Shown in pieces: positions 37,861 to 55,181 of a DNA stretch of 64,000 nt. The stretch comes from Methanobacteriota archaeon (lineage in GTDB: Archaea > Thermoplasmatota > Thermoplasmata > SG8-5 > DAIRED01), in contig JAZDNO010000006.1 of assembly GCA_043799545.1 (NCBI GenBank), positions 32,001 through 96,000 of the forward strand, written 5' to 3'. The position numbers were made by a program, and so were the translations under genes. Each line of letters opens with the position of its first letter. Positions within the stretch are counted from its first letter, which is position 1. The notes under the pieces were generated by a model. That model was not told the origin of the DNA. It searched no databases and saw only the letters and a list, made by a program, of their open reading frames with translations.

Positions 37861-37961
37861 ATTCCTGTGGGGTGTAAAAAAGTTTGTCTTTTAGAGGGAA
37901 AATCGTCCAGCGCACTCGACACCTTAAAATATCGTCATCATCTATTCCCGCGCGTGGAAGC

Positions 37962-39254
37962 ATGCTAGACCCCAAGCTCGTCCGCGAGAACCCCGATGTC
38001 ATCAGACGCGACCTGGAGAAGCGCAACGACGGCGCAAAGCTTGAATTGCTGGGACAGGTCGTCGCGCAGGATGCCGAGTGGCGCAAGCTGACCGAAGAGG
38101 TCAACAATCTCAGGCACGAGAGGAACGACATCGCCAGGAAGATAGCCGAGACGAAGAAGGCAAAGGGCGACGCGACCGCACTGATGGAGAGAGCCGCAGA
38201 AATACCCAGGAAAATCGACGAGGCAGGCGCGCGCCTGGACGAGCTGAGGCACGCCGTTGACGCCGGGTTGATGAGGCTGCCGAACATCCTGCACGAGAGC
38301 GTGCCCGTGGGGAAGGACGATGTGGCAAACGTCGTCGTGATGTCGTGGGGGGAGCCCAGGGCGTTCGACTTCGAGCTGAAGAACCACGGTGAGCTGGCTG
38401 AGGCGCTGGGGCTGGCCGACTTCGACCGCGCGGCGAGGATATCCGGGGCCGGATTCAACTATCTGAAAGGCGACCTCGCGCTCCTCGACCTGGCACTGGT
38501 GAACTATGCCGTCCATTTCATGACCTCAAAGGGATACACGCTCGTGGAGCCCCCGTACATGATGCGGCGCGAGGCATACGAAGGAGTCACAGATCTTTCT
38601 GATTTCGAGAACGTGATGTACAAAATAGAGGGCGAGGATCTCTACATGATAGCAACATCCGAGCATCCGATGGCGGCTATGTACATGGGTGAAATAATCG
38701 ACGAGGACTTGCTACCCATCAAGCTCGTCGGGATGTCCCCGTGCTTCAGAAGGGAGATTGGCGCCCGCGGCGTGGACACCAAGGGCCTTTTCCGCATGCA
38801 CCAGTTCAACAAGGTGGAGCAGTTCATCTTCTGCCGTCCGGAGGACTCCTGGAAGTTCCACGAGGAGCTCCAGTCCAACAGCGAGGAGATGATAAAAGGG
38901 CTGGGCCTGCCCTTCCGCGTCGTGAACGTCTGCACCGGGGACATTGGCACGCTGGCCGCAAAGAAGTACGACATCGAGGTGTGGTTCCCCAGGCAGGGGA
39001 AGTATGGCGAGGTGACGTCGTGCTCCAACGACACCGATTACCAGGCCAGGCGCCTCGGTATAAGGTACGGAAAACACGGCGGCGAGAAGAAGGGAGTGCC
39101 GCACACCCTCAACAACACCGCAATAGCGACGTCGCGCATCATGGTCGCCATCCTTGAGAATTGCCAGAACGCGGACGGAAGCGTCACAATCCCGGAGGCT
39201 CTGCGCAAGTACATGGGCGGAAAAGATAGGATGCCGGAAGGGGGGTCGGGATGA
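37962..39254 (+). CDS. serS: Seryl-tRNA synthetase (type 1)
   Basis: MLDPKLVR, coiled arm, ATSEHP, CFRREIGARG.DTKGLFRMHQFNKVEQF, EVTSCSN, HTLNNTAIA. Confidence 0.97.
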   Translation: MLDPKLVRENPDVIRRDLEKRNDGAKLELLGQVVAQDAEWRKLTEEVNNLRHERNDIARKIAETKKAKGDATALMERAAEIPRKIDEAGARLDELRHAVDAGLMRLPNILHESVPVGKDDVANVVVMSWGEPRAFDFELKNHGELAEALGLADFDRAARISGAGFNYLKGDLALLDLALVNYAVHFMTSKGYTLVEPPYMMRREAYEGVTDLSDFENVMYKIEGEDLYMIATSEHPMAAMYMGEIIDEDLLPIKLVGMSPCFRREIGARGVDTKGLFRMHQFNKVEQFIFCRPEDSWKFHEELQSNSEEMIKGLGLPFRVVNVCTGDIGTLAAKKYDIEVWFPRQGKYGEVTSCSNDTDYQARRLGIRYGKHGGEKKGVPHTLNNTAIATSRIMVAILENCQNADGSVTIPEALRKYMGGKDRMPEGGSG

Positions 39255-39814
39255 AACCTGGAACGGCAAAAGAGGCCACAGTTCAATTCCGATCCATCGA
39301 AGAGCCAGAGATAGTGAAGATCCATGGATACCAGAATGGGGATTGCAGGGAGGAACTGTCCGGCATATTCAGGTTCGAGGAACCGTGGGCTCCGATGAGC
39401 AGGGCTCAGATAAAGGAGAAGCTGGACGAGCAACGAAAGGAGCGCAGAAGCGCTTTCTTCGGCCTTTTTTTGCCCGAAGGCGAATTTGTAGGTCTGGCAT
39501 CTTTCACATCAAGGTGGGACCCTTGGTGCCCGCGCTTTGAAATCATCGTTTGGCCCGAATGCAGAAGGAAAGGCTTCGGGAGGTCGGCAGCGCAGAACAT
39601 GCTCTCAAAAATTTTCGGCGACCATTTGTCCAACGCGACATCGACCAGCGTGCCTGAGTGGTCCAAGCCGGCGCGTGCATTCGTCGAATCCCTGGGATTC
39701 AGTGCCTGCGGCCGGATGCGGCGAGCCGGCATCAGGGGCGGCAAGTTCTACGACATGGTGTGCTACGATTTACTCAAGCGGGAATATCTGGCCGGCAAGA
39801 AGGGGGTGGGGTGA
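39251..39814 (+). CDS. RimJ/RimL-type GNAT, type A copy 1
   Basis: RRKGFGRSAA, GRMRRAG...FYD...YDLL..EY; ATGA overlap with serS. Confidence 0.8.
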   Translation: MKPGTAKEATVQFRSIEEPEIVKIHGYQNGDCREELSGIFRFEEPWAPMSRAQIKEKLDEQRKERRSAFFGLFLPEGEFVGLASFTSRWDPWCPRFEIIVWPECRRKGFGRSAAQNMLSKIFGDHLSNATSTSVPEWSKPARAFVESLGFSACGRMRRAGIRGGKFYDMVCYDLLKREYLAGKKGVG

Positions 39815-40374
39815 TGGACGTCCTTGTCGGCAAAACGGTGCGGCTCAGGCCGATGAAGGATTCGGATTACGAATATTTCGCGTCTTTGAAGAACGACCTT
39901 CGGACGCAGGCCTGGAACCAGCGCACGCCGATGTGCAGGACCGCCCAGCAGATGAAGGAGCATTACGAGACCGAGAGGAAGAAGCCACACACCGGGGACT
40001 TTTCCATCGAGACGCTGGACGGGGCGCTCGTGGGTACGATTGGATATGGCGAGGACCCTCCTAGGCTGGCTGCCCACGTCGGCGTCATCACCGGCATGGA
40101 ACATTGGGGAAAGGGGTATGCGCTGGAGGCGCACGAACTGCTGCTGCGATTCCTATTCGAGGAAAGGGGAATCCAGGTCGTTCGCCTATGGACGCAATCT
40201 GGCAACGAGCGCGGGATAGCCGCGGCGGAGAAAATCGGGTTCAAAGTTCAGAGCCGATTCAGGGAGAACGGAATAATCGGGGGAAAGCCCGCCGACAACG
40301 TGTACATGGACATGCTGCGCGAGGAATATTTCAAAGCCAGAGGCCTCAAGGACAACCTGCCACCACGCCGCTGA
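39814..40374 (+). CDS. RimJ/RimL-type GNAT, type B copy 1
   Basis: GKTVRLRP, HWGKGYALEA, GNERGI..AEKIGF; TGATG overlap with the previous gene. Confidence 0.85.
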   Translation: MDVLVGKTVRLRPMKDSDYEYFASLKNDLRTQAWNQRTPMCRTAQQMKEHYETERKKPHTGDFSIETLDGALVGTIGYGEDPPRLAAHVGVITGMEHWGKGYALEAHELLLRFLFEERGIQVVRLWTQSGNERGIAAAEKIGFKVQSRFRENGIIGGKPADNVYMDMLREEYFKARGLKDNLPPRR

Positions 40375-40420
40375 CCGGACAACCGAAGATATTTCTACCA
40401 ATTCAGGCATCGCTCGGGCG

Positions 40421-40981
40421 ATGAACGAGAATGCGAAGATGGGTCCCCGCATAGAAATCCGCTCCCTGGGGGAGCAGGAGATGGTCGAGGTCCACCGCCA
40501 GCAGAACTCGCGCTGCCTCGCAGAGCTGGCCGACTTCCTCGACGTCGAGCCGCCTTACCTCCCGCTCACGCTGGAAAAAGTCAAAAGCACGGTTGCCGAG
40601 TACAACCGCAAGGATAGGACTTACCTCTCCGGGGTTTTCACCCATGACGGACATCTCGTGGGCCTGGCATTCTACGGTGCCGAGTTCGACGCCACCTGGC
40701 CGTGGCTATCGGTCCTGATATTTCCCGAGCACAGGCGCAAAGGGTTCGGGCGCGCAGCGGCGGACGCGCTGATGGCGAAGGCGTTCGGCCAGACTCACGC
40801 CCGCTCGGCATGCTGCCATGTCCCCGGCTGGTCCGAAGCGGGGCTTGCGTTCGCCCCGAAGATGGGCTTAAGGGCGGCCGGTCGAAGCCGCCGGTCATAC
40901 TTCATCGACGGCGGGTTCGTCGACGGTTTCTTCTTCGACATCCTTCGCTCGGAGTACGCCGGAACTGGGGGGGATATATGA
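40421..40981 (+). CDS. RimJ/RimL-type GNAT, type A copy 2
   Basis: RRKGFGRAAA, VPGWS, GRSRRS...FDIL..EY; paralogous to 39251. Confidence 0.8.
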   Translation: MNENAKMGPRIEIRSLGEQEMVEVHRQQNSRCLAELADFLDVEPPYLPLTLEKVKSTVAEYNRKDRTYLSGVFTHDGHLVGLAFYGAEFDATWPWLSVLIFPEHRRKGFGRAAADALMAKAFGQTHARSACCHVPGWSEAGLAFAPKMGLRAAGRSRRSYFIDGGFVDGFFFDILRSEYAGTGGDI

Positions 40982-41538
40982 TGGAACTGTTCGAGGGGAA
41001 GCTGGTCCGCCTGAGGCCATACCGGGACGGGGACTTGGGGTACTTTTCCGGGCTCAGGAACGACATGCGCACCCAGGGCTGGAACCAGAGGATGCCGCCC
41101 CGGGCGACGCCGGAGAGCACCCGCGAGAGGCTGGAGGACCGCCAGAAGAACCAGCACTCGGCAGTCCTCGCAATAGAGACGCTTGACGGAAAGCTCGTGG
41201 GCTACGTCACATACGAAGAGGGCCCCATGCGCCTGAAGGCTATGCTCGGCGCCATAACGGGGCCGGAGCACTGGGGCAAAGGATATGCCCGCGAGGCTCA
41301 GGAGCTGATGATGAAGTTCCTCTTCGAGGACCGCGGAATCCAGGTCATCTACCTATGGACGACGTCGTGGAACGAGAAGGCCGTGCACGGCGCGGCGAAG
41401 CTTGGCTTCAAACCCGCCGTTCGGTTGAGGGAGGCCACGGTGATGGACGGCAAGCGCCACGATGCGATAATAATGGACATGGTGCGCGAGGAGTACTACG
41501 CCGTCAGAGGGCTGAAGGACCCGCTCAGCGGCATCTGA
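40978..41538 (+). CDS. RimJ/RimL-type GNAT, type B copy 2
   Basis: GKLVRLRP, NDMRTQGWNQR, HWGKGYAREA; paralogous to 39814. Confidence 0.85.
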   Translation: MMELFEGKLVRLRPYRDGDLGYFSGLRNDMRTQGWNQRMPPRATPESTRERLEDRQKNQHSAVLAIETLDGKLVGYVTYEEGPMRLKAMLGAITGPEHWGKGYAREAQELMMKFLFEDRGIQVIYLWTTSWNEKAVHGAAKLGFKPAVRLREATVMDGKRHDAIIMDMVREEYYAVRGLKDPLSGI

Positions 41539-42908: not shown

Positions 42909-42973
42909 GCGGCACCAGGGGGATGAGACAGTCGCCGATTAAGAGCTTTGCGGAGGAAGCCTGCCAAATCAAT

Positions 42974-43017
42974 TTGTTATATATTGTAATAATACTTTGT
43001 AATATTGTTTTTTATAC
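42974..43017 (+). promoter_or_regulatory. AT-rich promoter of the hybrid hydrogenase operon with TTGT(AATA) repeats
   Basis: TTGT at 42974, 42984, 42997 and 43005; TTGTAATA at 42984 and 42997; TTTTATAC ends near 43017. Confidence 0.45.
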
Positions 43018-43060
43018 TCACTCTCGGATTTGCCGTTGGCTCGACCCAGGAGTTAAGTCC

Positions 43061-44782
43061 ATGAAGCCCAAGGTAGCGGTGTTCGACTTCGCAAGCTGCG
43101 AAGGCTGCGAACTGCAGATCGCGAATCTCGAGGAGCAGGTAATCGACCTAGTCGGCGCGGTCGACATAGTCTCCTTCAGGGAGGTCATGAAGGAGCACTC
43201 GGACGATTACGACATCGCGTTCATTGAGGGCTCGATAAACCGACCTCTGGACGAGGAGCGGTTGAAGAAGATTCGGTCTCGCGCGAAGGTCCTCATCGCC
43301 ATGGGCGACTGCGCCTGCACGGGCTGTGTCAACAAGCTGAGGAACCAGTGGACGGTCGAGGAGGTCAAGAAAGAGGTGTATCCAGACGCGGCGGCGCAGA
43401 TGAAGGGCAACGAGCTCTTCGACATCTTTCCGACGAAGGCCATCGACGAAGTCGTGAAGGTGGATTTCTACATCCGCGGCTGCCCGATTCGGAAGGAGCA
43501 GTTCATCTATTACGTCAACAGGTTCGCGACCATGCCCCCGAGGAAGAACATGAACCTGCGCTTCAAGATCACCGAAAGGGAGATGGAGTCCGACCCCCGC
43601 TCGGTAATCCACTACGACCCGCAGAAGTGCATTCTTTGTAGGCACTGCCAGATAATATGCAACGACGTTCTTGACGTGCACGCCATCGGCATATCGGAGA
43701 AGGGGAACGAATCCATCATCTCCACGCCTTTTGAGAAAGGGCTGGAGGCCAACAACTGCATCAAGTGCGGCCAATGCCTCGTCAATTGCCCGGTCGGAGC
43801 GTTTTCGGAGAGCGCGGGAGTCGAAAAGGCCAAGGCGCTCATCGAGGACCCGAAGAATTACGTCATCCTGGTCATAGACCCGATTGCGATGGCCTCGGCA
43901 ATGGAGGGGATGATGACGTCGGAGACGCAGCTGGGGCCGGTGATTAGGAGGACGATATCGGCGTTCAGGAAGCTCGGCGTCAAGAGGGTGCTCGATTTCA
44001 CAAACTTCACGTACCTCTCAATCGCGGCGCAGGGCGAGCACATCAGGAACCACCACGAGATGAGCTTCGCATCATGGTGTCCGAGCGCCAGTATTTTCGT
44101 GAAGAAGTTCTATCCGCAGTTCAAGAAGTACCTGCACCCAGAATTCGAACCAGTTAACATCATGGCAGACCAGCTGAGGGCCAAGTACGGCAAGAAGAAT
44201 CTGAAGATAGTGCTTGTGAGCCCATGCATCGTGCACAAGGGCAACGAAAGCATCGACGCAGTGCTGACCGCCAGGGAGCTGCCGAGGCTCCTGAAATCAT
44301 GCGAGCTCGACATCGATTTCTTCCCTGCCGAAGGGGTGGACTTCGACACCGAGTGCTCCATGACGACGACGTTCCTCAGCGGGGCCAGGAACGACCACAC
44401 TTACTCCGTGCAGATGCTTGAAGCTGCGTACTATGGCAAATTCAAGAACCTCGATTCGGCGCTCGACATCAAGACCATCGGCGACTACGCCCACGAACTG
44501 ACCTTCGACAGCGAGGAGGGCTTCTTCAACGCCCTCGTCATCGAAGACATAGCAAAGACCAGCAAGTACCTCGAGAAGGACATAAGGAAGTACAACATCG
44601 TCGAGCTTTACCCGTGCTACTGGGGGTGCGTCACCGGCGGCGGGCAGACGCTGACGACTTCGTTGGCTGTGCTGGAGCACAGGATGGCTTTGCTGAAGGA
44701 GTACAAGGGAACGATAAAAGACCATGGCAAATTCATAGCCCAGATGATTGCCGGGTACGAACAGTGCAAGAGGGGTGAGTAA
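43061..44782 (+). CDS. Hybrid subunit: [NiFe] small-subunit N-domain fused to the 2x[4Fe-4S] and H-cluster domain of an [FeFe] hydrogenase
   Basis: SCEGC, GDC, GCP (small subunit); CILCRHC and CIKCGQC..CPVGA; degenerate P1 ASWCPS, P2 SPCIVHK, P3 ELYPCYWGCVTGGG. Confidence 0.88.
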   Translation: MKPKVAVFDFASCEGCELQIANLEEQVIDLVGAVDIVSFREVMKEHSDDYDIAFIEGSINRPLDEERLKKIRSRAKVLIAMGDCACTGCVNKLRNQWTVEEVKKEVYPDAAAQMKGNELFDIFPTKAIDEVVKVDFYIRGCPIRKEQFIYYVNRFATMPPRKNMNLRFKITEREMESDPRSVIHYDPQKCILCRHCQIICNDVLDVHAIGISEKGNESIISTPFEKGLEANNCIKCGQCLVNCPVGAFSESAGVEKAKALIEDPKNYVILVIDPIAMASAMEGMMTSETQLGPVIRRTISAFRKLGVKRVLDFTNFTYLSIAAQGEHIRNHHEMSFASWCPSASIFVKKFYPQFKKYLHPEFEPVNIMADQLRAKYGKKNLKIVLVSPCIVHKGNESIDAVLTARELPRLLKSCELDIDFFPAEGVDFDTECSMTTTFLSGARNDHTYSVQMLEAAYYGKFKNLDSALDIKTIGDYAHELTFDSEEGFFNALVIEDIAKTSKYLEKDIRKYNIVELYPCYWGCVTGGGQTLTTSLAVLEHRMALLKEYKGTIKDHGKFIAQMIAGYEQCKRGE

Positions 44783-45256
44783 ATGGACGTCAAGGACAGG
44801 TTCGTAATCGACACGGTTCTGGAGAAGTACAAAGGGGTCCGGGACCCCGCCCTCATAATACTCCAGAATATCCAGGCCGTCCTCGGATACGTCGGGAAGG
44901 ATTACCTGGAGTACGTCGCCGAGAAGACCGATTACTCCCTCACGGAATTGTACGGCATAGTCACATTCTATCCGTCGTTCAGGCTGGAGCCACCGGGGAA
45001 GCACACAATCAAAGTCTGCCAGGGGACGGCCTGCCACGTCCGGGGCGGGGAGAAGGTGCTGAAGGCGGTGGAGGAGCTGCTGGAAATCAAGCCCGGCGGG
45101 ACGACCAAAGACCGGCTTTTCTCGCTGGAATCGGTCCGGTGCCTCGGCTGCTGCGGCCTCTCGCCAGTCATAATGATAGACAACGAAACTTACGGGCGGG
45201 TAAAACCCGCCAAGCTCAATGAAATCCTGACCAAATACGGGGAGGCGGGCGAATGA
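44783..45256 (+). CDS. NuoE/HydC-like [2Fe-2S] subunit
   Basis: TFYPSF, VCQGTACHVRG, RCLGCCGLSP. Confidence 0.92.
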   Translation: MDVKDRFVIDTVLEKYKGVRDPALIILQNIQAVLGYVGKDYLEYVAEKTDYSLTELYGIVTFYPSFRLEPPGKHTIKVCQGTACHVRGGEKVLKAVEELLEIKPGGTTKDRLFSLESVRCLGCCGLSPVIMIDNETYGRVKPAKLNEILTKYGEAGE

Positions 45257-48200
45257 AGATAAAGAGGAAGTTCGACCTGGAGGACCTGGCCAAGGCGGGT
45301 TTGGCCGACATGAACAGCGAGAACCCGCAGCTGATTTTCGGTCTGGCGACTTGCGGAATCGCGGCCGGCGGGATGCCGCTCAAGGAATACGCCGAGGAAT
45401 ACCTGTCGGTTAAAAACCCCAACGCCGAGATAGTCTCAGTGGGCTGCATCGGCATGTGCCACGCGGAACCGCTGGTGGACGTCAAGCTGCCGGGGAGGCC
45501 GAGGGTCACGTACCACAATATGACGGTTGAGAAGTTGAAGCGGGTCATGGACGAGCATCTTCTCGGGGGAAAGCCGGCCAAGGACCTGGCGCTGGCCCAG
45601 CTATCGGAGGAGATGTCCGAGTGCGTCGACGGCGTCCTGAAGTTCGACTCGAAATACGAGGGGATTCCGACCTATCGGGAGCTGCCCTTCTTCACCAAAC
45701 AGAAGAGGATTGTCCTGAGAAACTGCGGGATAGTCAATCCCGAAAGCCTGAAGGAGTACATTGCCAGGGGCGGCTACAAGAGCGCGTTCGCGATGCTTCA
45801 GGAGATGAAGCCCGAAGAGGTCATCGGCATCGTGAAGAAATCCGGCATAAGGGGCAGGGGCGGGGCGGGTTTCCCGACGGGGCTGAAGTGGGAGCTGTGC
45901 GCCAAAGCGCCTGGGGACGTGAAGTACATCATATGCAACGCGGACGAGGGCGACCCTGGCGCGTACATGGACCGGGCCGTGCTCGAAGGGGACCCGCACA
46001 GCGTCATCGAGGGGATGATAATCGGCGCCTACGCCATGGGCGCGTCAGAGGGCTTCGTCTACGTTAGGACGGAGTATCCGCTCGCCATCAAGCATTTGAA
46101 GCTGGCATTGGCCCAGGCTGAGAGCCACGGGCTCCTCGGCGAGAGAATTCTGGGAACGGACTTCAACTTCCAGATACACATCCGGGAAGGGGCGGGCGTG
46201 TTCGTCTGCGGCGAGGAGACGGCGCTCATGCATTCGATAGAAGGCAAGCGCGGGGAGCCGAGGCCCAGGCCGCCGTTCCCGGCGTCCAGCGGCCTGTGGG
46301 GCAAGCCCACCAACATCAACAATGTCGAGACGTGGGCCAACATCCCGCTCATCATGCAGAGGGGCGGGGCCTGGTTCGCGAAAATCGGGACCGAGAAGAG
46401 CACAGGGACGAAAGTATTCTCCCTTGTCGGCAAGATAAACCGGGCTGGCCTGGTGGAGGTGCCCGCGGGCATACCCCTGAAGGACATAGTGCACGAGATG
46501 GGGGGCGGTTGCCCCGACGGGAGGAAGGTCAAGGCCGTGCAGACGGGCGGGCCGTCCGGCGGTTGCATACCCGTCGAGCATCTGGACGTCACGGTGGATT
46601 ACGAGAACCTGAAGGCGCTGGGCTCCATCGTTGGGTCCGGTGGAATGGTCGTAATGGACGAGGACACGTGCATGGTCGACGTGGCTAGGTACTTCCTCTC
46701 TTTCACATCCGAAGAATCTTGCGGGAAATGCACTCCCTGCCGCGTCGGAACCAAGAGGATGCTGGAGCTGCTCCAGAAGATATGCCACGGCCAAGGCACT
46801 CCAGAGGATGTGCAGGTATTGGAGAACCTGTCCATCCAGGTGAGGGATGCGTCGCTTTGCGCGCTCGGCGGCACCGCGCCGAACCCGGTCCTCACCACTC
46901 TGAAATACTTCAGGCACGAGTACATGTCCCACGTCGAGGACGGCAAGTGCAAGGCGAGCGTGTGCGCGGCCATGTTCAAGTCGCCGTGCCAGAACACCTG
47001 CCCGGCCGGCACGAACGTCCCGGGATACATCCAGCTGATAAACGAGGGCAAGCTCGTTGAGGCCTACCAGGTGAACCTCGAGAACAACCCGTTCCCCTCG
47101 GTTTGCGGGCGCGTTTGCGAGCACCCATGCGAGGCAAGGTGCCAGCGCGGCCAGCTGGACGAGTCGATTGCCATCAGGGACCTTAAGAGGGTATGCTCCG
47201 ACGGCTTCGCCAAGTCCAAGAAGGCGCCGAAGGTTTCGAAGCTCAAACCCGTGGGGAAGAAGGTCGCCATAGTCGGCGGCGGGCCGTCGGGCATGTCGGC
47301 GGCGTACTTCCTCGCCCGCCTGGGCTACTTGCCGACCGTGTTCGAATCGGCCGAGAGGGCGGGGGGCTGGATGCGCTACGGGATACCGCGCTACAGGCTG
47401 CCGCACGAGGTGATCGACCGGGAGATAAAGAACATCGTCGACCTGGGCGTGGAATTGAAGACCGGCGTCGCCGTAGGCAGGGACGTGACTTTGCCCGAAC
47501 TCAAGAAGAAGTATGACGCGGTGTACCTAGCCATCGGGGCACAGCTCGATAAAAAGCTCGGGCTGGAGGGCGAGGACCTGCCCGGCGTGTTGCCAGGGCT
47601 CCAGGTGTTGAGGGATGTCAACGGCGGCAAGAAGGTCGACATCGGAAGGCACACGCTCATCATCGGTGGGGGCAACGTCGCTGTGGACGTGGCAAGAACC
47701 GCCGTGCGTGTGGGCGCCAAGGTGACGATTTGCTACAGGCGCGAGGAGCAGGACATGCCCGCCTACCGTGAAGAGGTAGAGCAGTGCAAGCAGGAGGGCG
47801 TCACTTACCACTTCCTCGTGGCGCCGGAGAAGCTAATCGTCCAGAAGGGAAGGGTCGTCGGAGCAGTGTTCAGGAAGAACTCGATTGGGGAGTTCAACAA
47901 GCACGGCCGCAGGGCGCCGGTGCCGACGGAAGAGACGCTGGAGGTCAAGGCCGACAGCATCATCGTGGCCATCGGGCAGGACGTCGACGAAGGCTTCGCA
48001 AAGGGATTCGACGGCGCGATTCTGGGCAAGGGCAAGCTCGTCGAGACCAAGAAAGGCCTGGCGACTAGCGACCCTAAGGTATTCGCCGGAGGGGACGCGG
48101 TCCTGGGGCCGGCGAGCGTCATCGAGGCCATAGGCCACGGAAAGCAGGCCGCGAGGAGCATCGACGCGATGCTCAGCGGGAAAGACAGGTTCCCCGAGCT

Positions 48201-48402
48201 GGAAGAGCACAACTTCGCGGGCTATTCCATGGCGGAGCCCAAGAACGAGCAGGAGATGCCGCGCCAGCATTCGGCGGAGGCCGAGGCTGCCAAGCGGATG
48301 TGCGGCTTCGACGAGGTGGTGATGTGCCTGGACGCGAAATGCGCCAAGAAAGAATCATCGAGATGTCTGAGGTGTGACCTCAGCGCAGTGGGGGATGATT
48401 AG
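45253..48402 (+). CDS. NuoF/HydB-like flavoprotein fused to a GltD/NfnB-like FAD/NAD(P)H oxidoreductase
   Basis: GRGGAGFPTG, NADEGDPG, CGEETAL, CGKCTPCR; then CQNTCP, CGRVCEHPCE, GGGPSG, GGGNVA..YRR, RCLRCD. Confidence 0.92.
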   Translation: MKIKRKFDLEDLAKAGLADMNSENPQLIFGLATCGIAAGGMPLKEYAEEYLSVKNPNAEIVSVGCIGMCHAEPLVDVKLPGRPRVTYHNMTVEKLKRVMDEHLLGGKPAKDLALAQLSEEMSECVDGVLKFDSKYEGIPTYRELPFFTKQKRIVLRNCGIVNPESLKEYIARGGYKSAFAMLQEMKPEEVIGIVKKSGIRGRGGAGFPTGLKWELCAKAPGDVKYIICNADEGDPGAYMDRAVLEGDPHSVIEGMIIGAYAMGASEGFVYVRTEYPLAIKHLKLALAQAESHGLLGERILGTDFNFQIHIREGAGVFVCGEETALMHSIEGKRGEPRPRPPFPASSGLWGKPTNINNVETWANIPLIMQRGGAWFAKIGTEKSTGTKVFSLVGKINRAGLVEVPAGIPLKDIVHEMGGGCPDGRKVKAVQTGGPSGGCIPVEHLDVTVDYENLKALGSIVGSGGMVVMDEDTCMVDVARYFLSFTSEESCGKCTPCRVGTKRMLELLQKICHGQGTPEDVQVLENLSIQVRDASLCALGGTAPNPVLTTLKYFRHEYMSHVEDGKCKASVCAAMFKSPCQNTCPAGTNVPGYIQLINEGKLVEAYQVNLENNPFPSVCGRVCEHPCEARCQRGQLDESIAIRDLKRVCSDGFAKSKKAPKVSKLKPVGKKVAIVGGGPSGMSAAYFLARLGYLPTVFESAERAGGWMRYGIPRYRLPHEVIDREIKNIVDLGVELKTGVAVGRDVTLPELKKKYDAVYLAIGAQLDKKLGLEGEDLPGVLPGLQVLRDVNGGKKVDIGRHTLIIGGGNVAVDVARTAVRVGAKVTICYRREEQDMPAYREEVEQCKQEGVTYHFLVAPEKLIVQKGRVVGAVFRKNSIGEFNKHGRRAPVPTEETLEVKADSIIVAIGQDVDEGFAKGFDGAILGKGKLVETKKGLATSDPKVFAGGDAVLGPASVIEAIGHGKQAARSIDAMLSGKDRFPELEEHNFAGYSMAEPKNEQEMPRQHSAEAEAAKRMCGFDEVVMCLDAKCAKKESSRCLRCDLSAVGDD

Positions 48403-49083
48403 ATGCCTTCAGGCGTGATGATTGAGATTGTAGTTGACGGCAAGAAGATACATTGCCAGCCTAACCAGACGGTGCTGGAAGTCGCCAAGGCGAACAACAT
48501 CAGCATCCCGACGATGTGCCTGAACCCTCTGTTTCCGGGGCACAAGGTGGGTGCGTGCAGGATGTGCCTCGTGGAGATAACGGGGGGCGGGAGGCCTGGG
48601 CTGCAACCGAGCTGCACGCTGCCTGTCTCGTCGGGTCTGGCCATGTCCACATGCAGCGATGCAGTGTACAACGCCAGGCGGACTGTGGTGGAGCTGATGC
48701 TGACGGAGCACGTGCAGAAATGCCGCGACTGCCCCATCAGCGGTGACTGCAACTTCGCCAGGCTGTGCAGGGACTACGACGTCAACGGCGTCCCGGTCTG
48801 CGCGGAATGCCCCAACCAGAGGGAGGGCTGCCTGCTCAAGCGCGGAGTCCTCTGCGTCGGGCCGATAACGTACGCCAACTGCAACGCCTACTGCACCCGG
48901 CAGGGGTACAGATGCGAGGGTTGCCACTCCGTGATGGTGCACGACGACATACTGAAGTTCGGCATCAGGGCATTCAAGGACGCTGGCTTCAAGGCCAAGG
49001 ACATAGTGGAGGCAGCGAAAGTCTTCTCGTACGACAGCGTCAAAAGGGTCGAGAAGGCGCTGAAAGAGGAGGGGATGAAATGA
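48403..49083 (+). CDS. Hybrid subunit: HydA/NuoG N-terminal [2Fe-2S] and His-ligated [4Fe-4S] domains fused to the distal-cluster domain of a [NiFe] small subunit
   Basis: IPTMC..GACRMC..SC, EHVQKCRDC..GDC; then PVCAEC..CL..C.GPIT.A.C.A.C..C.GC. Confidence 0.85.
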   Translation: MPSGVMIEIVVDGKKIHCQPNQTVLEVAKANNISIPTMCLNPLFPGHKVGACRMCLVEITGGGRPGLQPSCTLPVSSGLAMSTCSDAVYNARRTVVELMLTEHVQKCRDCPISGDCNFARLCRDYDVNGVPVCAECPNQREGCLLKRGVLCVGPITYANCNAYCTRQGYRCEGCHSVMVHDDILKFGIRAFKDAGFKAKDIVEAAKVFSYDSVKRVEKALKEEGMK

Positions 49084-50375
49084 GCGAAAAGAACGTCCGC
49101 GTTGAGCATCTGACAAGGGTGGAGGGGCATGGCAACATCATCCTCAACTCCAAGAACGGCAAGTTGGAGAAGGTGGTCTGGGAGGTCTCGGAGGCTCCGA
49201 GGCTTTTCGAGGCCTTCGTGAGGGGGAAGCCCTATAGCCAGCTCGCGCAAATCACATCGAGGATATGCGGGATATGCTCCATCGGTCACACGATGGCATC
49301 TCTGAAGGCGACGGAGGCGGCGATGGGGATTGAAATATCCGAGCAGAGCGAGAAGCTCAGGCGGCTCGCGATGCACGGGGAGAACCTCCAGAGCCACGTT
49401 CTTCACGTGGGATACCTCGTCGCTCCAGACCTGTTCGGCGTGGGCAGCGTCGTTCCGCTAGTCGGAACCCACACCGACACCGTCCTGGCGATAATCAAAC
49501 TGCACAAGACGGCGAACGAGTTCTCGGACATGATATGCGGCCGGACGACGCACCCGACCAACCTGGTTCCAGGCGGGCTGTGGAAAACGCCCTCGCCACT
49601 GAAGCTTAGGAGCATGAGGCAGAAGCTCCTGGAGATGGTGCCTACGGCGAATGCTGTCGCCGAGGTGGTGCTGGCAAATGCGGGAGCCCTGCCGAATTTC
49701 ACGAGGGAGACGGAATTCATCGGCTTGGTGTCCAAGGACGAGTACGCGCTCTACGACGGCGACGTCGGCTCGACGGACGGCGGAACCTTCCCCGTGTCGT
49801 CGTACAGGACGATAGTCAACGAGTTCGTAGTACCCCAGTCCACCGCGAAGTACACGAAGCACAAGCGCGACTCTTTCATGGTCGGAGCCCTGGCCAGGTA
49901 CAACCTCAACTCCAAGAAGTTGTCTCCGATGGCGAAGGATTGGGCGGACAGGTTCGGCCTCAAACCGGTATGCCACAACCCGTTCATGAACAACGTGGCC
50001 CAGCTGGTCGAGGTGTTCAATTCCGTCGAGGATTCGATCGCGATAATCGACAGCCTGCTCGGCAAGTACGCCGACGAGCCCAGGCCAAAGATTAAACCGA
50101 AGGCCGGGAGCGGCGTTGGGGCGGTGGAGGTTCCGCGCGGTATACTCTTCCACGACTACACGTACGATGCCAACGGCCTGTGCACCAAGGCGAACTGCGT
50201 CATACCGACGAACCAGAACCACAACAACATCCAAAAGGACATGGAGGCGTTCGCGCCCACGCTCCTCGACAGGCCGGAAAAGGAGATCGAGCTAAACCTC
50301 GAGATGCTCGTGCGCGCCTACGACCCGTGCATCTCCTGCTCGACGCATTATTTAAAGGTCAAATTCGTGCGTTGA
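49080..50375 (+). CDS. Group 3b-like [NiFe] hydrogenase large subunit (hybrid operon)
   Basis: TRVEGHG, L1 RICGICSIGH, EVPRG, L2 DPCISCSTH plus an 8-aa tail. Confidence 0.95.
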   Translation: MSEKNVRVEHLTRVEGHGNIILNSKNGKLEKVVWEVSEAPRLFEAFVRGKPYSQLAQITSRICGICSIGHTMASLKATEAAMGIEISEQSEKLRRLAMHGENLQSHVLHVGYLVAPDLFGVGSVVPLVGTHTDTVLAIIKLHKTANEFSDMICGRTTHPTNLVPGGLWKTPSPLKLRSMRQKLLEMVPTANAVAEVVLANAGALPNFTRETEFIGLVSKDEYALYDGDVGSTDGGTFPVSSYRTIVNEFVVPQSTAKYTKHKRDSFMVGALARYNLNSKKLSPMAKDWADRFGLKPVCHNPFMNNVAQLVEVFNSVEDSIAIIDSLLGKYADEPRPKIKPKAGSGVGAVEVPRGILFHDYTYDANGLCTKANCVIPTNQNHNNIQKDMEAFAPTLLDRPEKEIELNLEMLVRAYDPCISCSTHYLKVKFVR

Positions 50376-50592: not shown

Positions 50593-52521
50593 TTGAAGAT
50601 AATACAAAAGGATGATTTCAAAGGGTTTGTGAACGCGCTGATAAAGGACAGCGGCATGGACGTTGAAGGCGTGAAGGCGAAGGGCCCGAAGTTCGCCTTC
50701 GGGCCGCTGGACAGCGCCGACGAGCTCAGGCTCGATTACGACGTCACGCTCCTGCCCCCGAAAAAGTATTTCCTGCCTCAGTACGAACAGTTGATGACCT
50801 TCGATTTGTCGAGCCCGTTCTCTGTCACCAGAGCCGAATACCCGCGCCGCAAGCTCATCATCGGCGTTCATCCCTACGATATTGTCGCGATTAGGCAGAT
50901 GGATAGCTATTTCCTCGACACGGATGTATCGGCCAGCTACCTCAGGAGGAAGAAGAACATACTCATCATCGGCTGCGATGTCATGCGCGTGCAGGACAAG
51001 GCCTTCTTCGGCTCGATGGGCACGGGGATGGTGCATTCTGGATACGACCTCTTCCTGACCGACCTGGGCGAGAAGGTGGCCATCGAGGTCGGAACTGAAG
51101 CGGGAAGCGACCTGCTCAGGTTCGCGACGAATGTGAGGGAGGCCACCCCGGTCGAGGTCCAGAAGGTCAAGGCGATGAGGGAGGCCACCGCGCTGAAGGC
51201 GACGCGCGGCCTGATGGTGAAGCCGAATGGCTGGCACGACCTGCTGGAGAAGGACTACGAGAGCGAGGTCTGGAAGAAGCAATCCGACAAATGCCTGGCT
51301 TGCGGCACGTGCACGCTGGTCTGCCCGACGTGCTTCTGCTACGACGTCAAGGACGACATACACCTGACTTTAAAGACAGGCGAACGGTCTAGGACGTGGG
51401 ACGGTTGCTTGCTCCGCCGGTTCACCGAGATAGGGTCCGGGGAGATATTCAGGGACGACATCCTCGACAGGTACAGGCACAGGATTCACAGGAAGGGTCG
51501 GTACCTCCCCGACCGATTGGGGTTCGTAGCCTGCGTGGGATGCGGTCGCTGCTCGAGCCAGTGCGTCCCGGACATTGCAGACCCGGTCAACCTAATTAAC
51601 ATGCTGTTCGAGGCGTCGCCGCACCTGGTAACCGATTCGCTTTCCGACCCGCACACCGTGAAGACAGACTTCACGAATCTCCCCGAGGGCGACACGGCCA
51701 AGATGCTCCACATGCCTGTGCCGGCAACCATCAATAGGGTTGAGAAGCTCACGGCGAAGGAGACTCTGTTCGAGATATCTCTCGACGACGGGAAGGCGCT
51801 CGGTCACGTGCCCGGCCAGTTCGTCGAGGTCTCAATCGCCGGCATGGGAGAATCCCCGATATCCGTTTCGTCAGCGCCGGGAACCAAGACCTTCGAGCTG
51901 GTAGTCAGGAAGGTCGGAGACGTCACGAGCAAGCTCCACACCATGAAGGCGGGAGATAAAATAGGAATCCGCGGGCCGTTCGGAAAGGGCTTCGACACCG
52001 AGGGTTTGAAGGGGAAGAACCTGCTCTTCATCGGGGCTGGCCTGGGCATGGTCCCGATGCGCTCCTTCATCAACCACGTGCTCAACAACCGCAAGGACTA
52101 CGGCGAGGTGACGATACTCTATGGATGCAAGGAACCGTGCGAGATGCTCTTCGCCAAGGAAATAGGGTCATGGGGGAAGCGCGATGACATACAGCACAAG
52201 AGGGCTGTCGACAAGTGCCCCGAAGGAGCGTGCTGGGACGGCGAGATAGGCGTCATAACGACGTTGCTGCCGAAGGTCAAATTCGATCCCAAGACGACGG
52301 TCGCCATCGTCGTCGGACCTCCGATCGTCTACAAATTCGTGAACAGGGACCTGCTCAAGCTCGGTGTGCCTGAGGAGAACATCGTCGTCTCCCTCGAAAG
52401 GCGCATGAAGTGCGGCGTCGGCAAGTGCGGGCACTGCCAGATGAACGGCATCTACGTATGCAAGGAAGGGCCAGTGTTCAATCTAAAGGACCTTAAGGGC
52501 GTGCAGGAGGCGTTCGAATGA
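50593..52521 (+). CDS. Fused beta (Fe-S) and gamma (FAD/NAD) subunits of a group 3b sulfhydrogenase (AsrA/AsrB-like)
   Basis: CLACGTCTLVCPTC.C and CVGCGRCSSQC; then PGQF, RGPFG.G, GAGLG..P, CGVGKCGHC...C. Confidence 0.9.
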   Translation: MKIIQKDDFKGFVNALIKDSGMDVEGVKAKGPKFAFGPLDSADELRLDYDVTLLPPKKYFLPQYEQLMTFDLSSPFSVTRAEYPRRKLIIGVHPYDIVAIRQMDSYFLDTDVSASYLRRKKNILIIGCDVMRVQDKAFFGSMGTGMVHSGYDLFLTDLGEKVAIEVGTEAGSDLLRFATNVREATPVEVQKVKAMREATALKATRGLMVKPNGWHDLLEKDYESEVWKKQSDKCLACGTCTLVCPTCFCYDVKDDIHLTLKTGERSRTWDGCLLRRFTEIGSGEIFRDDILDRYRHRIHRKGRYLPDRLGFVACVGCGRCSSQCVPDIADPVNLINMLFEASPHLVTDSLSDPHTVKTDFTNLPEGDTAKMLHMPVPATINRVEKLTAKETLFEISLDDGKALGHVPGQFVEVSIAGMGESPISVSSAPGTKTFELVVRKVGDVTSKLHTMKAGDKIGIRGPFGKGFDTEGLKGKNLLFIGAGLGMVPMRSFINHVLNNRKDYGEVTILYGCKEPCEMLFAKEIGSWGKRDDIQHKRAVDKCPEGACWDGEIGVITTLLPKVKFDPKTTVAIVVGPPIVYKFVNRDLLKLGVPEENIVVSLERRMKCGVGKCGHCQMNGIYVCKEGPVFNLKDLKGVQEAFE

Positions 52522-53294
52522 CCAAACCGCGAGTTGCGTTCTTCGACTTCTCGAGCTGCGAGGGCTGCCAGCTCCAGGTCGTCAACCTGGAGGAGGCCAT
52601 ACTGGATGTCGTCGGGCTCGTCGACATAGTCGAATTCAGGGAGGCCATGAAAGAATCCTCGACAGAATACGACATTGCAATTATCGAGGGGTCCATCGCA
52701 CGGCCGATGGACGTCGAGAGGATAAAGAAGATTAGGGAGAGGGCAAAGGTGCTAATCGCACTCGGGGCATGCGCCCACCTCGGCGGAGTACAGAGGATGG
52801 GCAACAAATGGACCGCTGAGGAGAACAAGGCAGAAGTCTATGCGAGACACCCCGGCTCCGAGGTGACAAAGGGCGATGCCAACCCCTATTTCGACCAGCC
52901 CAGGCACAGGGCCGTGGACGAGATTGTCAAAGTGGACTACACGATTCCGGGATGCCCCATAGACTCGAACGAGTTTGCGAAGGTTCTGATTGCTCTCCTG
53001 ACGGGCAAGAAGCCGCCTATTCCAGACTACCCAGTTTGCGTGGAGTGCAAGAAGAACGAGAACATCTGCCTCTTCACCATCGGGCAGTTCTGCATGGGGC
53101 CGATAGCTAGGGCCGGATGCGGCGCGATATGCCCGACCCACGGCGGCGAGTGCGAGGCGTGCCGAGGGTACGTGGACCACCCGCACACGCAAGCCCAGAC
53201 GGAAGTGCTAAAGAAGCACGGGCTGACGGTGGACGAAATCATGAACAGGAAGACAATGTACACTCACCGCTACGTCGAGGAGGGGAAACAATGA
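52518..53294 (+). CDS. Group 3b [NiFe] hydrogenase small (delta) subunit, complete
   Basis: SCEGC, GAC, PGCP, PVCVEC...C.GP...GC...CP....C..CRG. Confidence 0.93.
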   Translation: MTKPRVAFFDFSSCEGCQLQVVNLEEAILDVVGLVDIVEFREAMKESSTEYDIAIIEGSIARPMDVERIKKIRERAKVLIALGACAHLGGVQRMGNKWTAEENKAEVYARHPGSEVTKGDANPYFDQPRHRAVDEIVKVDYTIPGCPIDSNEFAKVLIALLTGKKPPIPDYPVCVECKKNENICLFTIGQFCMGPIARAGCGAICPTHGGECEACRGYVDHPHTQAQTEVLKKHGLTVDEIMNRKTMYTHRYVEEGKQ

Positions 53295-54589
53295 GCAACG
53301 TCAACATCAACGTCGAGCACCTGACAAGGGTCGAGGGCCACGGCAACATTGTGCTGAACGCGAAGGACGGCAAAATCGAGAAGGTGCAGTGGCAGGTTTC
53401 CGAGGCCCCGCGCTTCTTCGAATCGTTCGTCAGGGGGAGGCCATACAACGAGCTCAGCCACATCACCTCTAGGATTTGCGGCATCTGCTCCATCGGGCAT
53501 TCGCTCGCCTCCCTAAAGGCCACAGAAGCCGCAATGGGCATCCATACTTCGGAGCAGACCGAGATTCTCAGGCGGCTCGCGATACACGCGGAGAACATTC
53601 AGAGCCACGTTCTTCATGTGGGCTACCTGGTCGCTCCCGACTTGCTGGGGGCGCCGAGTGTGATTCCTCTTGCGGGCACGCACACTGGCGCAGTTCTGAA
53701 AATCGTCGGGTTGCACCGCTTGGCTAACGAGTACTCCAACATGATTTGCGGAAGGACAGTCCACCCGATCAGCCTCATCCCGGGCGGCTTCAGTCACATC
53801 CCTTCCGAGAAGCAGCTTAAGGGACTGAGGAAGAAGATTGCAGATGCGGTTCCTGATGTCGTCGCAGTCGCGGAGATAGTTCTGGCAAACGCGCACAAGC
53901 TACCGAACTTCTCTCGCGAAACGGAGTTCATAGCCCTCACGGCAGACGACGAATATGCCATCTACGACGGGGACATGGGCTCGACGGACGGCGGTCGCTG
54001 GCCGGTCGACAAATACCTTGAAATTACCAACGAATTCGTGGTCCCGCATTCGACGGCAAAGTTCACTAGGCACAAGCGCGAATCGTACATGGTCGGGGCG
54101 CTCGCACGCTTCAACCTCAACTACGACAAGCTGACCCCGGGGGCAAAGGAATGGGCCGGGAAATTCGGCCTGAAGCCAGTCAACCACAACCCGTTCATGA
54201 ACAGCGTCGCGCAGCTCGTGGAAACCGTGCACAGCTTCGAGGACTCGATAGCGCAAATCGACAAACTCATCGGGATGGGAATCGACGTCAACGAGAGGCC
54301 GAAGTTCGCAGTCAAGGCCGGTCATGGCGTGGGTGCGGTGGACGTGCCGAGGGGAATCCTCTTCCATGATTACACATACAACGACAAGGGCATTTGCACT
54401 AAAGCCAACTGCATCATCCCCACCAACCAGAACCACAACAACATAAACCAGGACTTCAAAGCGTTCGCGCCGACGATAATCGACAAGCCAGAGAAGGAAA
54501 TCGAGCTTCTGATGGAAATGCTGGTTCGCGCGTACGACCCGTGCATCTCCTGCTCGACGCACTACCTTGACGTGAAATTCGTGCGTTGA
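53291..54589 (+). CDS. Group 3b [NiFe] hydrogenase large (alpha) subunit, second copy
   Basis: TRVEGHG, RICGICSIGH, DVPRG, DPCISCSTHYLDVKFVR. Confidence 0.95.
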   Translation: MSNVNINVEHLTRVEGHGNIVLNAKDGKIEKVQWQVSEAPRFFESFVRGRPYNELSHITSRICGICSIGHSLASLKATEAAMGIHTSEQTEILRRLAIHAENIQSHVLHVGYLVAPDLLGAPSVIPLAGTHTGAVLKIVGLHRLANEYSNMICGRTVHPISLIPGGFSHIPSEKQLKGLRKKIADAVPDVVAVAEIVLANAHKLPNFSRETEFIALTADDEYAIYDGDMGSTDGGRWPVDKYLEITNEFVVPHSTAKFTRHKRESYMVGALARFNLNYDKLTPGAKEWAGKFGLKPVNHNPFMNSVAQLVETVHSFEDSIAQIDKLIGMGIDVNERPKFAVKAGHGVGAVDVPRGILFHDYTYNDKGICTKANCIIPTNQNHNNINQDFKAFAPTIIDKPEKEIELLMEMLVRAYDPCISCSTHYLDVKFVR

Positions 54590-54710
54590 TTGGATGTATC
54601 GCATTTCGAGAAAGCCGAAGCAGGAACCCAGGAGCGTCGGCCAGGGCACTAATAAACGTCGACAGGTTAAGGAAAGCCCGGGATTGCGACAATCGGTCAT
54701 CCGTGGCAAG

Positions 54711-55181
54711 ATGCCAAAAGCCGCCGTCATAGGAATAGGCAACCCCCTGATGTGCGACGACGGTGCGGGAATCGAGGTTCTGGACGCCCTTCGGAAGATG
54801 ACCTTGCCCGCAGGCGTGGACATACTGGACTGCGGGACCGGAGGGATGGCTCTCTTGCATGCGCTGGCGGATTATCGCGCCGTCGCAATCGTGGACGCGG
54901 TCGATTTCGGGGGCAGGCCTGGAGAAGTGAAATCTTTCTCCCCGGACGATGCCGTCTCCATAAAGGAGCTCAAGCGCCTGTCGCTCCACGAAGGGGACGC
55001 CTTCGAGACAATCGTTCTGGCAAGAAGGCTGGGCCAGTGCCCAGAGAATATAGTCATCTGCGCAATCCAGCCCAAGCGGATCGAGCCCAGGCACGGGATG
55101 ACCCGCGACGTGCGCTCGAAGCTGCCAGAACTCGCCTCTCAGGCGCGCCTGGCTCTCGAGCGGCTTTTAGCCAGCCGTTGA
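54711..55181 (+). CDS. Hydrogenase maturation endopeptidase (HyaD/HycI family)
   Basis: GIGNPLMCDDGAG, IVDAVD, SLHE. Confidence 0.92.
   Translation: MPKAAVIGIGNPLMCDDGAGIEVLDALRKMTLPAGVDILDCGTGGMALLHALADYRAVAIVDAVDFGGRPGEVKSFSPDDAVSIKELKRLSLHEGDAFETIVLARRLGQCPENIVICAIQPKRIEPRHGMTRDVRSKLPELASQARLALERLLASR

Follow-up and report, generated by a model that had tools for sequence, protein, structure and literature searches.

Can a single archaeal operon build one enzyme that carries both a [NiFe] and an [FeFe] hydrogenase, and if so, do both sites work? The question is raised by five genes (g1 to g5) at positions 43061-50375 of the window analysed here, a 64,000-nt stretch of a Methanobacteriota archaeon assembly (GCA_043799545.1, contig JAZDNO010000006.1, positions 32,001-96,000, plus strand). 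To our knowledge, hybrid hydrogenases are the only known case of both unrelated families of H2-activating metalloenzymes occurring in one complex. We conclude that the operon very probably encodes one soluble, multi-subunit hybrid hydrogenase, group F in its [FeFe] part and group 3f in its [NiFe] part, built on the plan of the HydABC-type, flavin-based bifurcating or confurcating (Bfu) enzymes. It is a further member of a class published in 2024, a rediscovery and not a discovery.

That class was described by Greening et al. (Cell 2024; PMC11216029), who define group F [FeFe] hydrogenases by a HyhS-HydA fusion accompanied by four contiguous partner genes, HyhL, HydB, HydC and HydD, with a GltA-type domain on HydB, and who used AlphaFold2 to model all five chains of the complex of their exemplar, Thermoplasmatota UBA147. 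At the present locus, g1 joins an N-terminal group-3 small-subunit domain to a C-terminal [FeFe] H-domain, and it is followed without interruption by hydC, hydB, hydD and hyhL. When one genome per GTDB species was scanned, full-length relatives of g1 turned up in a Thermoplasmatota metagenome-assembled genome (MAG; 89% identity) as well as in a Thermoplasmata MAG and UBA147 (78% identity); the placement in group F is judged by this 78% full-length identity to the UBA147 protein. The UBA147-type hybrid shares with the present one the fusion, the order of the partner genes, the GltD-type domain on HydB, the H-cluster cysteines and the absence of HydEFG. It comes from a different species, and at the present locus a group 3b operon intervenes between the hybrid genes and the HycI protease gene. 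An earlier reading, made from the sequence alone (the sequence-only reading), had assigned the locus to the group F hybrids of uncultured archaea, which agrees with PMC11216029. Published work thus already covers the class as such, the make-up of the operon and the missing maturases. The fusion protein has two subtypes, a long one of ~573 aa (the window and UBA147) and a short one of ~494 aa (for example L024:3501-4982), and both are found within the taxonomic order of the host genome.

Five intact open reading frames (ORFs) on the plus strand span the interval exactly, in agreement with the five coupled genes of the sequence-only reading. They are joined by 0-nt gaps or 4-nt ATGA overlaps, and every domain stated for the five genes is backed by Pfam. 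The N-terminal part of g1 (residues 1-156) is the proximal-cluster domain of a [NiFe] group-3b small subunit, and is followed by a 2x[4Fe-4S] F-domain (residues 165-255) and an [FeFe] H-domain (residues 256-573) with the cluster cysteines C340, C389, C519 and C523. The Pfam matches of this protein are Oxidored_q6 (4e-25), a Fer4 dicluster and Fe_hyd_lg_C (1.9e-23), and its residues 3-156 match P. furiosus SHI delta in the PDB (E 7.5e-21). The HydC-type g2 matches 2Fe-2S_thioredx (6e-47), and its PDB matches are the HydC-type subunits of Bfu enzymes (E 3e-45 to 6e-36). From its N-terminus, g3 is laid out as a thioredoxin-like domain, a site for flavin mononucleotide (FMN) and NAD(H), the NuoF [4Fe-4S] cluster, a Fer4_20 2x[4Fe-4S] domain and a domain for flavin adenine dinucleotide (FAD) and NAD(P)H (Complex1_51K 4e-47, SLBB, NADH_4Fe-4S 2e-33, Fer4_20 5e-20, Pyr_redox_2 4e-29). 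In g4, residues 6-129 form the N-terminal [2Fe-2S] and His-ligated [4Fe-4S] domains of HydA/NuoG (Fer2_4, NADH-G_4Fe-4S_3; residues 10-135 match HydA1 7q4v with E 9e-21), and residues 130-220 form the C-terminal, eight-cysteine domain that holds the medial and distal clusters of a group-3b [NiFe] small subunit. The [NiFe] large subunit g5, for which the ATG at 49080 is taken as a plausible start within a listed ORF that begins earlier, is group-3b-like and intact: it matches NiFeSe_Hases, has both Ni-binding motifs (RICGICSIGH and DPCISCSTH) and retains, beyond the His, a C-terminal tail that an endopeptidase would cleave. The names that the sequence-only reading had given to these chains therefore hold, including its "Fe-S/distal-domain fusion" for g4 and its intact large subunit for g5.

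One sign that the five chains belong together lies in how two parent proteins are divided over g1 and g4. Residues 2-148 of g1 align to residues 3-153 of the small subunit encoded by the neighbouring 3b operon with 58% identity, and there the alignment ends. The remainder of that subunit is found on g4, whose residues 130-219 match residues 160-250 of P. furiosus SHI delta (E 4e-13, PDB) and whose C-terminal domain matches the neighbouring 3b small subunit (E 4e-11, BLASTP) up to small-subunit residue 252, with all eight cysteines aligned to the 3b small subunit across 12 orthologues. HydA is divided in the reciprocal way: residues 6-139 of g4 align to residues 3-131 of T. kivui HydA1, and residues 164-542 of g1 align to its residues 120-519 (8a6t, E 1.7e-42). 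Both parents, a 3b small subunit and an M3-type HydA, are thus each cut once, with the pieces rejoined crosswise, and with each parent split over g1 and g4 the two chains must interlock to rebuild either one. When g1 and g4 were co-folded, the interface score ipSAE was 0.82, compared with 0.01 for the best control (the mark set for this score was attained by 58 of 80 solved complexes and by 2 of 110 mismatched pairs); at least 95% of contacts were common to the runs, and the partner pLDDT was at least 87. The contacts join the HyhS domain of g1 to the C-terminal domain of g4, and the F- and H-domains of g1 to the N-terminal domains of g4. Since g1 and g4 are halves of proteins with solved structures, this pass may reflect likeness to those structures rather than proof of the interface. 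Together with the conserved synteny described below, the split and the co-fold support the claim of a single complex.

The order of the genes suggests a possible origin. The C-terminal part of HydA, HydC, HydB and the N-terminal part of HydA follow one another, bracketed by the two halves of the small subunit, and the large subunit comes after them. Such an order would result if a hydA'-hydC-hydB-'hydA block, circularly permuted, had been inserted once and in frame into a group-3b small-subunit gene, and this event would account for the exactly complementary split of both parents. The main text of PMC11216029 describes HydD as a NuoG-like conduit of four clusters and assigns to the fusion protein three [4Fe-4S] clusters that belong to the [NiFe] component, whereas here the medial/distal domain of the small subunit sits on HydD. 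This split, and the absence of HydG and HydF throughout an order in which the H-domain is under purifying selection, are details beyond that main text and leave the class unchanged. Group A3 HydABC (T. kivui 8A6T, T. maritima 7P5H) is alike in its HydA-like F- and H-domains, HydB and HydC. It differs in that here HydA is split and fused to the halves of a [NiFe] small subunit, the relay cysteine, pocket residues and ferredoxin-like tail of HydB are replaced, and maturases are lacking.

Two flavin and nucleotide sites had also been claimed, and two pyridine-nucleotide sites in g3 are well supported by homology. Over residues 35-577, g3 matches HydB of A. mobile (7t2r_B, E 2e-214) and NfnB of T. 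sibiricus (E 2e-211). The stretch 577-977 corresponds to the part of T. sibiricus NfnA that binds FAD and NADPH (E 1e-108), and residues 576-1042 align to chains 9BOV_A and 8OH5_C, which carry the same GltD/NfnL-like module. With an FMN/NAD(H) site in HydB and a [2Fe-2S] cluster in HydC, the core of a Bfu enzyme is present. A close likeness for the added module is the Bfu transhydrogenase NfnABC of T. sibiricus (9N5U), in which a GltD/NfnL-like 2x[4Fe-4S]-FAD-NADPH module is also joined to a HydBC core; there the module is on a HydA-like subunit and the enzyme has no hydrogenase site, whereas in the hybrid HydB carries the module as a C-terminal fusion. One feature of g3 makes the full Bfu mechanism less certain. 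Its alignment to HydB homologues stops at about residue 577, where the GltD-type Fer4_20 2x[4Fe-4S] domain replaces the ferredoxin-like B3/B4 tail, the place at which ferredoxin docks in NfnABC and the ferredoxin exit of other Bfu enzymes (PMC12018979). Because the B3/B4 domain is replaced, the bifurcation scheme and its low-potential third substrate are ones that we infer.

A group 3b operon begins 218 nt downstream of the hybrid operon, and its large subunit shares 71% protein identity and ~70% DNA identity with g5. The best solved matches of g5 are P. furiosus SHI alpha (E 3e-65) and the T. kodakarensis 3b enzyme. By these matches, the hybrid's [NiFe] module is 3b-derived. The group 3b SHI of P. 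furiosus, the cytosolic hydrogenase of T. kodakarensis and the neighbouring operon are alike in the large subunit and in both halves of the small subunit; in the hybrid, the small subunit is split over two fusions, and the beta and gamma subunits (FAD/NADPH) are replaced by parts derived from HydC, HydB-GltD and HydA. Recent gene conversion between the two large-subunit genes was considered as a general explanation and rejected, the DNA being ~70% identical with only a short identical patch at the 3' end. Many proteins match g1 over residues 1-156 only (60-72% identity), and we rejected these as hybrids without an H-domain, since they belong to ordinary group 3b operons.

The means to mature the [NiFe] site are largely encoded. 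The sequence-only reading had stated that the window holds no maturases; this stands for the HydEFG and Hyp genes, none of which lies in the window, and fails for the HycI-type endopeptidase that follows the 3b operon (Table 1). The C-terminal tails of the hybrid and 3b large subunits differ at one residue, and in loci L019, L024, L027 and L034 a HycI homologue directly follows the hybrid hyhL at its 3' side, which argues that one HycI protease probably serves both neighbouring large subunits. Elsewhere in the genome, HypC, HypA and HypD are found together on contig 2 and HypF on contig 30. A gap in this set weighs against a working enzyme: searches of this assembly with bacterial HypE proteins (tblastn) and with the HypE family model returned no HypE. 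A real loss of HypE was rejected because 20 of the 22 genomes of the order have the gene, including a genome of the same genus, and its absence is probably an assembly gap. Both CxxC motifs, the cleavable tail, Hyp genes and the protease, all expected of a group 3 [NiFe] large subunit, are present. Since its ligands are intact and HypA, HypC, HypD, HypF and the protease are encoded, the [NiFe] site appears, as far as sequence can tell, to be the securely functional one.

As a complete set, the neighbouring genes form a sulfhydrogenase-type group 3b [NiFe] hydrogenase operon with its HycI protease (window 50593-55181), which the sequence-only reading did not mention. The genome encodes another [NiFe] hydrogenase on contig 2 (118000-134000), of the membrane-bound group 4, with Mrp-type antiporter subunits and a HycI-like protease of its own. 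An NfnSL-like pair, consisting of a Fer4_20/Pyr_redox_2 protein and a PyrK-like protein, adjoins this group 4 hydrogenase.

These parts suggest a path for electrons through the hybrid. By homology, the large subunit g5 pairs with the small subunit split over the N-terminus of g1 and the C-terminus of g4, and g2 and g3 provide the FMN/NAD(H) core. Electrons from H2 would pass from the [NiFe] site to the proximal cluster of g1 and on to the medial and distal clusters of g4, and would reach the HydBC flavin core by way of the clusters in the N-terminal part of g4. At the core they would be divided between NAD(H) at the FMN and NADP(H), a low-potential carrier, or both at the GltD module; release of H2 would follow the same path in reverse. 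The H-domain arm would join this wire via its two F-clusters. A similar arrangement is known from A. mobile NiFe-HydABCSL (NiFe-Bfu, PDB 7T2R/7T30), in which a [NiFe] hydrogenase is wired to the HydBC flavin core via a HydA/NuoG-like Fe-S subunit, and whose chains are also matched by g2 and by the N-terminal domains of g4 and g1. That enzyme differs in having a HydA without an H-cluster, a separate short small subunit and no GltD module, and its large subunit is more distant from g5 than are the 3b enzymes (E 3e-47 versus 3e-65).

Would a fault of assembly, or two independent enzymes that are merely adjacent, explain the locus as well? A chimera would be conceivable in a metagenome-type assembly of 31 contigs, which is the sole support for this explanation, and the sequence-only reading had itself named chimerism among the findings that would overturn it. 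Fourteen loci, which come from independent assemblies and share 37-92% identity, have g1-g5 in the identical order, and the closest of these (89-92% identity) also has PAC2 upstream and a 3b gene downstream. GC content is even across the hybrid locus. This synteny, the neighbours common to the 89% relative and the even GC exclude a chimeric assembly. The genes moreover overlap or abut, and with the small subunit and HydA each split over g1 and g4, neither half-enzyme would be complete alone. We therefore give an assembly chimera or a chance neighbourhood of two enzymes almost no credence. The host genome (2.06 Mb, 94% complete) is archaeal, as had been claimed, because it encodes the archaeal ribosomal protein S19e and PAC2 and Cdc48 genes flank the operon.

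Whether the H-domain is catalytic is the harder part of the question. Its four cluster cysteines and its GGG loop are invariant in 17 homologues, the cysteines align to the HydA1 motifs, pairwise dN/dS (the ratio of nonsynonymous to synonymous substitution) over the domain is 0.05-0.13, which shows purifying selection, and 12 of the order's 22 genomes have the domain, as do six of the seven high-quality ones. Given this invariance, selection and retention across the order, the H-domain is a maintained, functional domain, and it certainly binds a [4Fe-4S] cluster. That it also carries a di-iron H2 site in the cell, by way of a HydEFG-independent route, has about an even chance of being right. 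The pocket itself can hold the cofactor, since one group F fusion protein loaded with synthetic [2Fe]adt made H2 at ~5% of the level of the C. reinhardtii enzyme, and a second artificially matured group F protein had low activity (PMC11216029). The same study found the same lack of maturases in genomes of the hybrid class, and reported that most archaeal genomes with [FeFe] hydrogenases are without maturases, including ones with enzymes active in vitro.

The invariance of the GGG loop and of the four cysteines, one of which bridges to the di-iron site, the purifying selection, the H2 made by the loaded fusion protein and the maturase-free genomes with enzymes active in vitro all tell against the reading that only the [NiFe] site turns over H2 and that the H-domain holds just a [4Fe-4S] cubane, as a structural element or a branch of the electron relay. 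We nonetheless give that reading a considerable probability, somewhat below even; the enzyme would then function as A. mobile HydABCSL does, as a NiFe-Bfu hydrogenase, but with an NADP(H) module in addition. Several points weigh in its favour and against a working di-iron site. Throughout the family, by alignment to HydA1 and in standard CpI numbering, the proton-relay Cys299 is replaced by an invariant Trp, Lys358 by His (with a Lys one position later), Met353 by Ser and Met497 by Tyr, and the Glu279/Glu282 stretch is deleted. In g1, ASWCP, SPCIVHK and ELYPC stand in place of the group A features TSCCP, the Lys of MPCxxK, and Met353/Met497. The H-domain is by far the fastest-diverging part of the complex, with only 21-26% identity between the long and short subtypes; the HyhS domain stands at 62-81%, g3 at 57-65% and g5 at 62-77%. 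The short subtype is without ~80 residues of the H-domain. The genome-wide maturase search that the sequence-only reading had proposed returned no match to HydE or HydG in this 94%-complete genome, and all that HydF gave were generic GTPases scoring under the cut-off; none of the order's 22 genomes has HydG or HydF. There is also a precedent in the HydA-like subunit without an H-cluster of a NiFe-Bfu enzyme (PMC11216029; 7t2r matches). A sensory role, in which the H-domain would act as an H2 sensor or gate that tunes electron flow by H2 pressure instead of carrying bulk turnover, is suggested by analogy to the putatively sensory group C and D [FeFe] hydrogenases, which also are without the proton-relay Cys. 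The loss of the canonical proton pathway with retention of the cluster ligands, the activity of the two relatives assayed, which was no more than modest or low (PMC11216029), and the position of the H-domain on a side arm of the cluster chain in the g1/g4 co-fold interface map would all fit such a role. Pfam finds no signalling domain (PAS, kinase) in the operon, the argument is wholly one of analogy, and evidence for a di-iron cofactor in vivo is wanting, so we consider a sensor improbable. The most far-reaching combination, an H-domain with a working H2-activating cofactor made without HydE/F/G in an enzyme that arose as a whole from one insertion of the permuted hydA'-hydC-hydB-'hydA block into a 3b small-subunit gene, we put forward tentatively, as rather unlikely to be right in both its parts.

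The coordinates of the operon and its neighbours are collected in Table 1. The 150 nt upstream of g1 are AT-rich and contain TATA-like boxes at ~42974-42986 and ~43008-43017, and a putative GGAG ribosome-binding site lies ~8 nt before the g1 ATG. Rfam and tRNA scans of the whole window returned no match. Further upstream, a 2-kb dip in GC (0.39 compared with ~0.60) at 29807-32113 coincides with a 768-aa ORF on the minus strand that has four DUF4379 treble-clef zinc-finger repeats and a C-terminal CapR-homology domain; this is possibly a horizontally acquired gene. At 37884-41538, four genes for GNAT (RimJ/RimL-type) acetyltransferases come in a row after serS, all on its strand.

Table 1. Features of the hybrid hydrogenase locus and the adjoining 3b operon, in window coordinates
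Feature	Position	Strand	Basis
Putative archaeal promoter/leader	42970..43060	+	inferred from reading the sequence only
g1, HyhS-HydA fusion, 573 aa	43061..44782	+	Pfam, PDB matches, alignments
g2, HydC/NuoE-type thioredoxin-like [2Fe-2S] subunit, 157 aa	44783..45256	+	Pfam, PDB
g3, HydB/NuoF diaphorase with GltD/NfnL-like module, 1049 aa	45253..48402	+	Pfam, PDB
g4, HydD, 226 aa	48403..49083	+	Pfam, PDB, BLASTP
g5, HyhL [NiFe] large subunit, 431 aa	49080..50375	+	Pfam, motifs, PDB
3b fused beta/gamma subunit, 642 aa	50593-52521		
3b small subunit	52518-53294		
3b large subunit	53291-54589		
HycI-type [NiFe] maturation endopeptidase	54594..55181	+	Pfam HycI (2e-26)

Full-length operons of the short type, flanked by hypF, hypD and hypE, are also found on contigs of MAGs labelled as Balneolales, Cyclonatronaceae, Gammaproteobacteria (one) and Nealsonbacteria (one). 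These loci are L024, L025, L027 and L029-L035 (also L032 and L037), for example L034:2219-15506, and they come from bacterial-labelled MAGs of four isolate-label styles (CSSed, DLM2, BLK5 and T1Sed). All five genomes tested among these MAGs have bacterial ribosomal protein L9, and none of the five has archaeal S19e. The GC content of each operon contig is close to that of the rest of its MAG, with values that fit either transfer or mis-binning, and a text search of the literature found no paper linking group F to these bacterial taxa. The bacterial-labelled operons may represent either cross-domain transfer or repeated mis-binning. In soda-lake Thermoplasmata loci, the hybrid operon is adjoined by a second, divergently oriented operon of unfused NiFe-Bfu type (L036:1551-7565, L037:1118-7082 and L039:1314-7276, minus strand). 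Its genes are those for HydC, for a HydB that has no GltD module, for a short HydD-like protein and for the small and large subunits, which are ~30% identical.

We know of no hybrid hydrogenase that has been purified whole. The present locus is a clean and complete example of the class, with five intact genes, a putative promoter region, a paralogous 3b operon and protease adjoining, and a 94%-complete genome around it, and it could be a template for co-expression and cryo-electron microscopy. If the H-domain does carry a working cofactor without HydEFG, either its maturation would follow a new route or the cofactor would be non-canonical and sit in a remodelled pocket lined by Trp.

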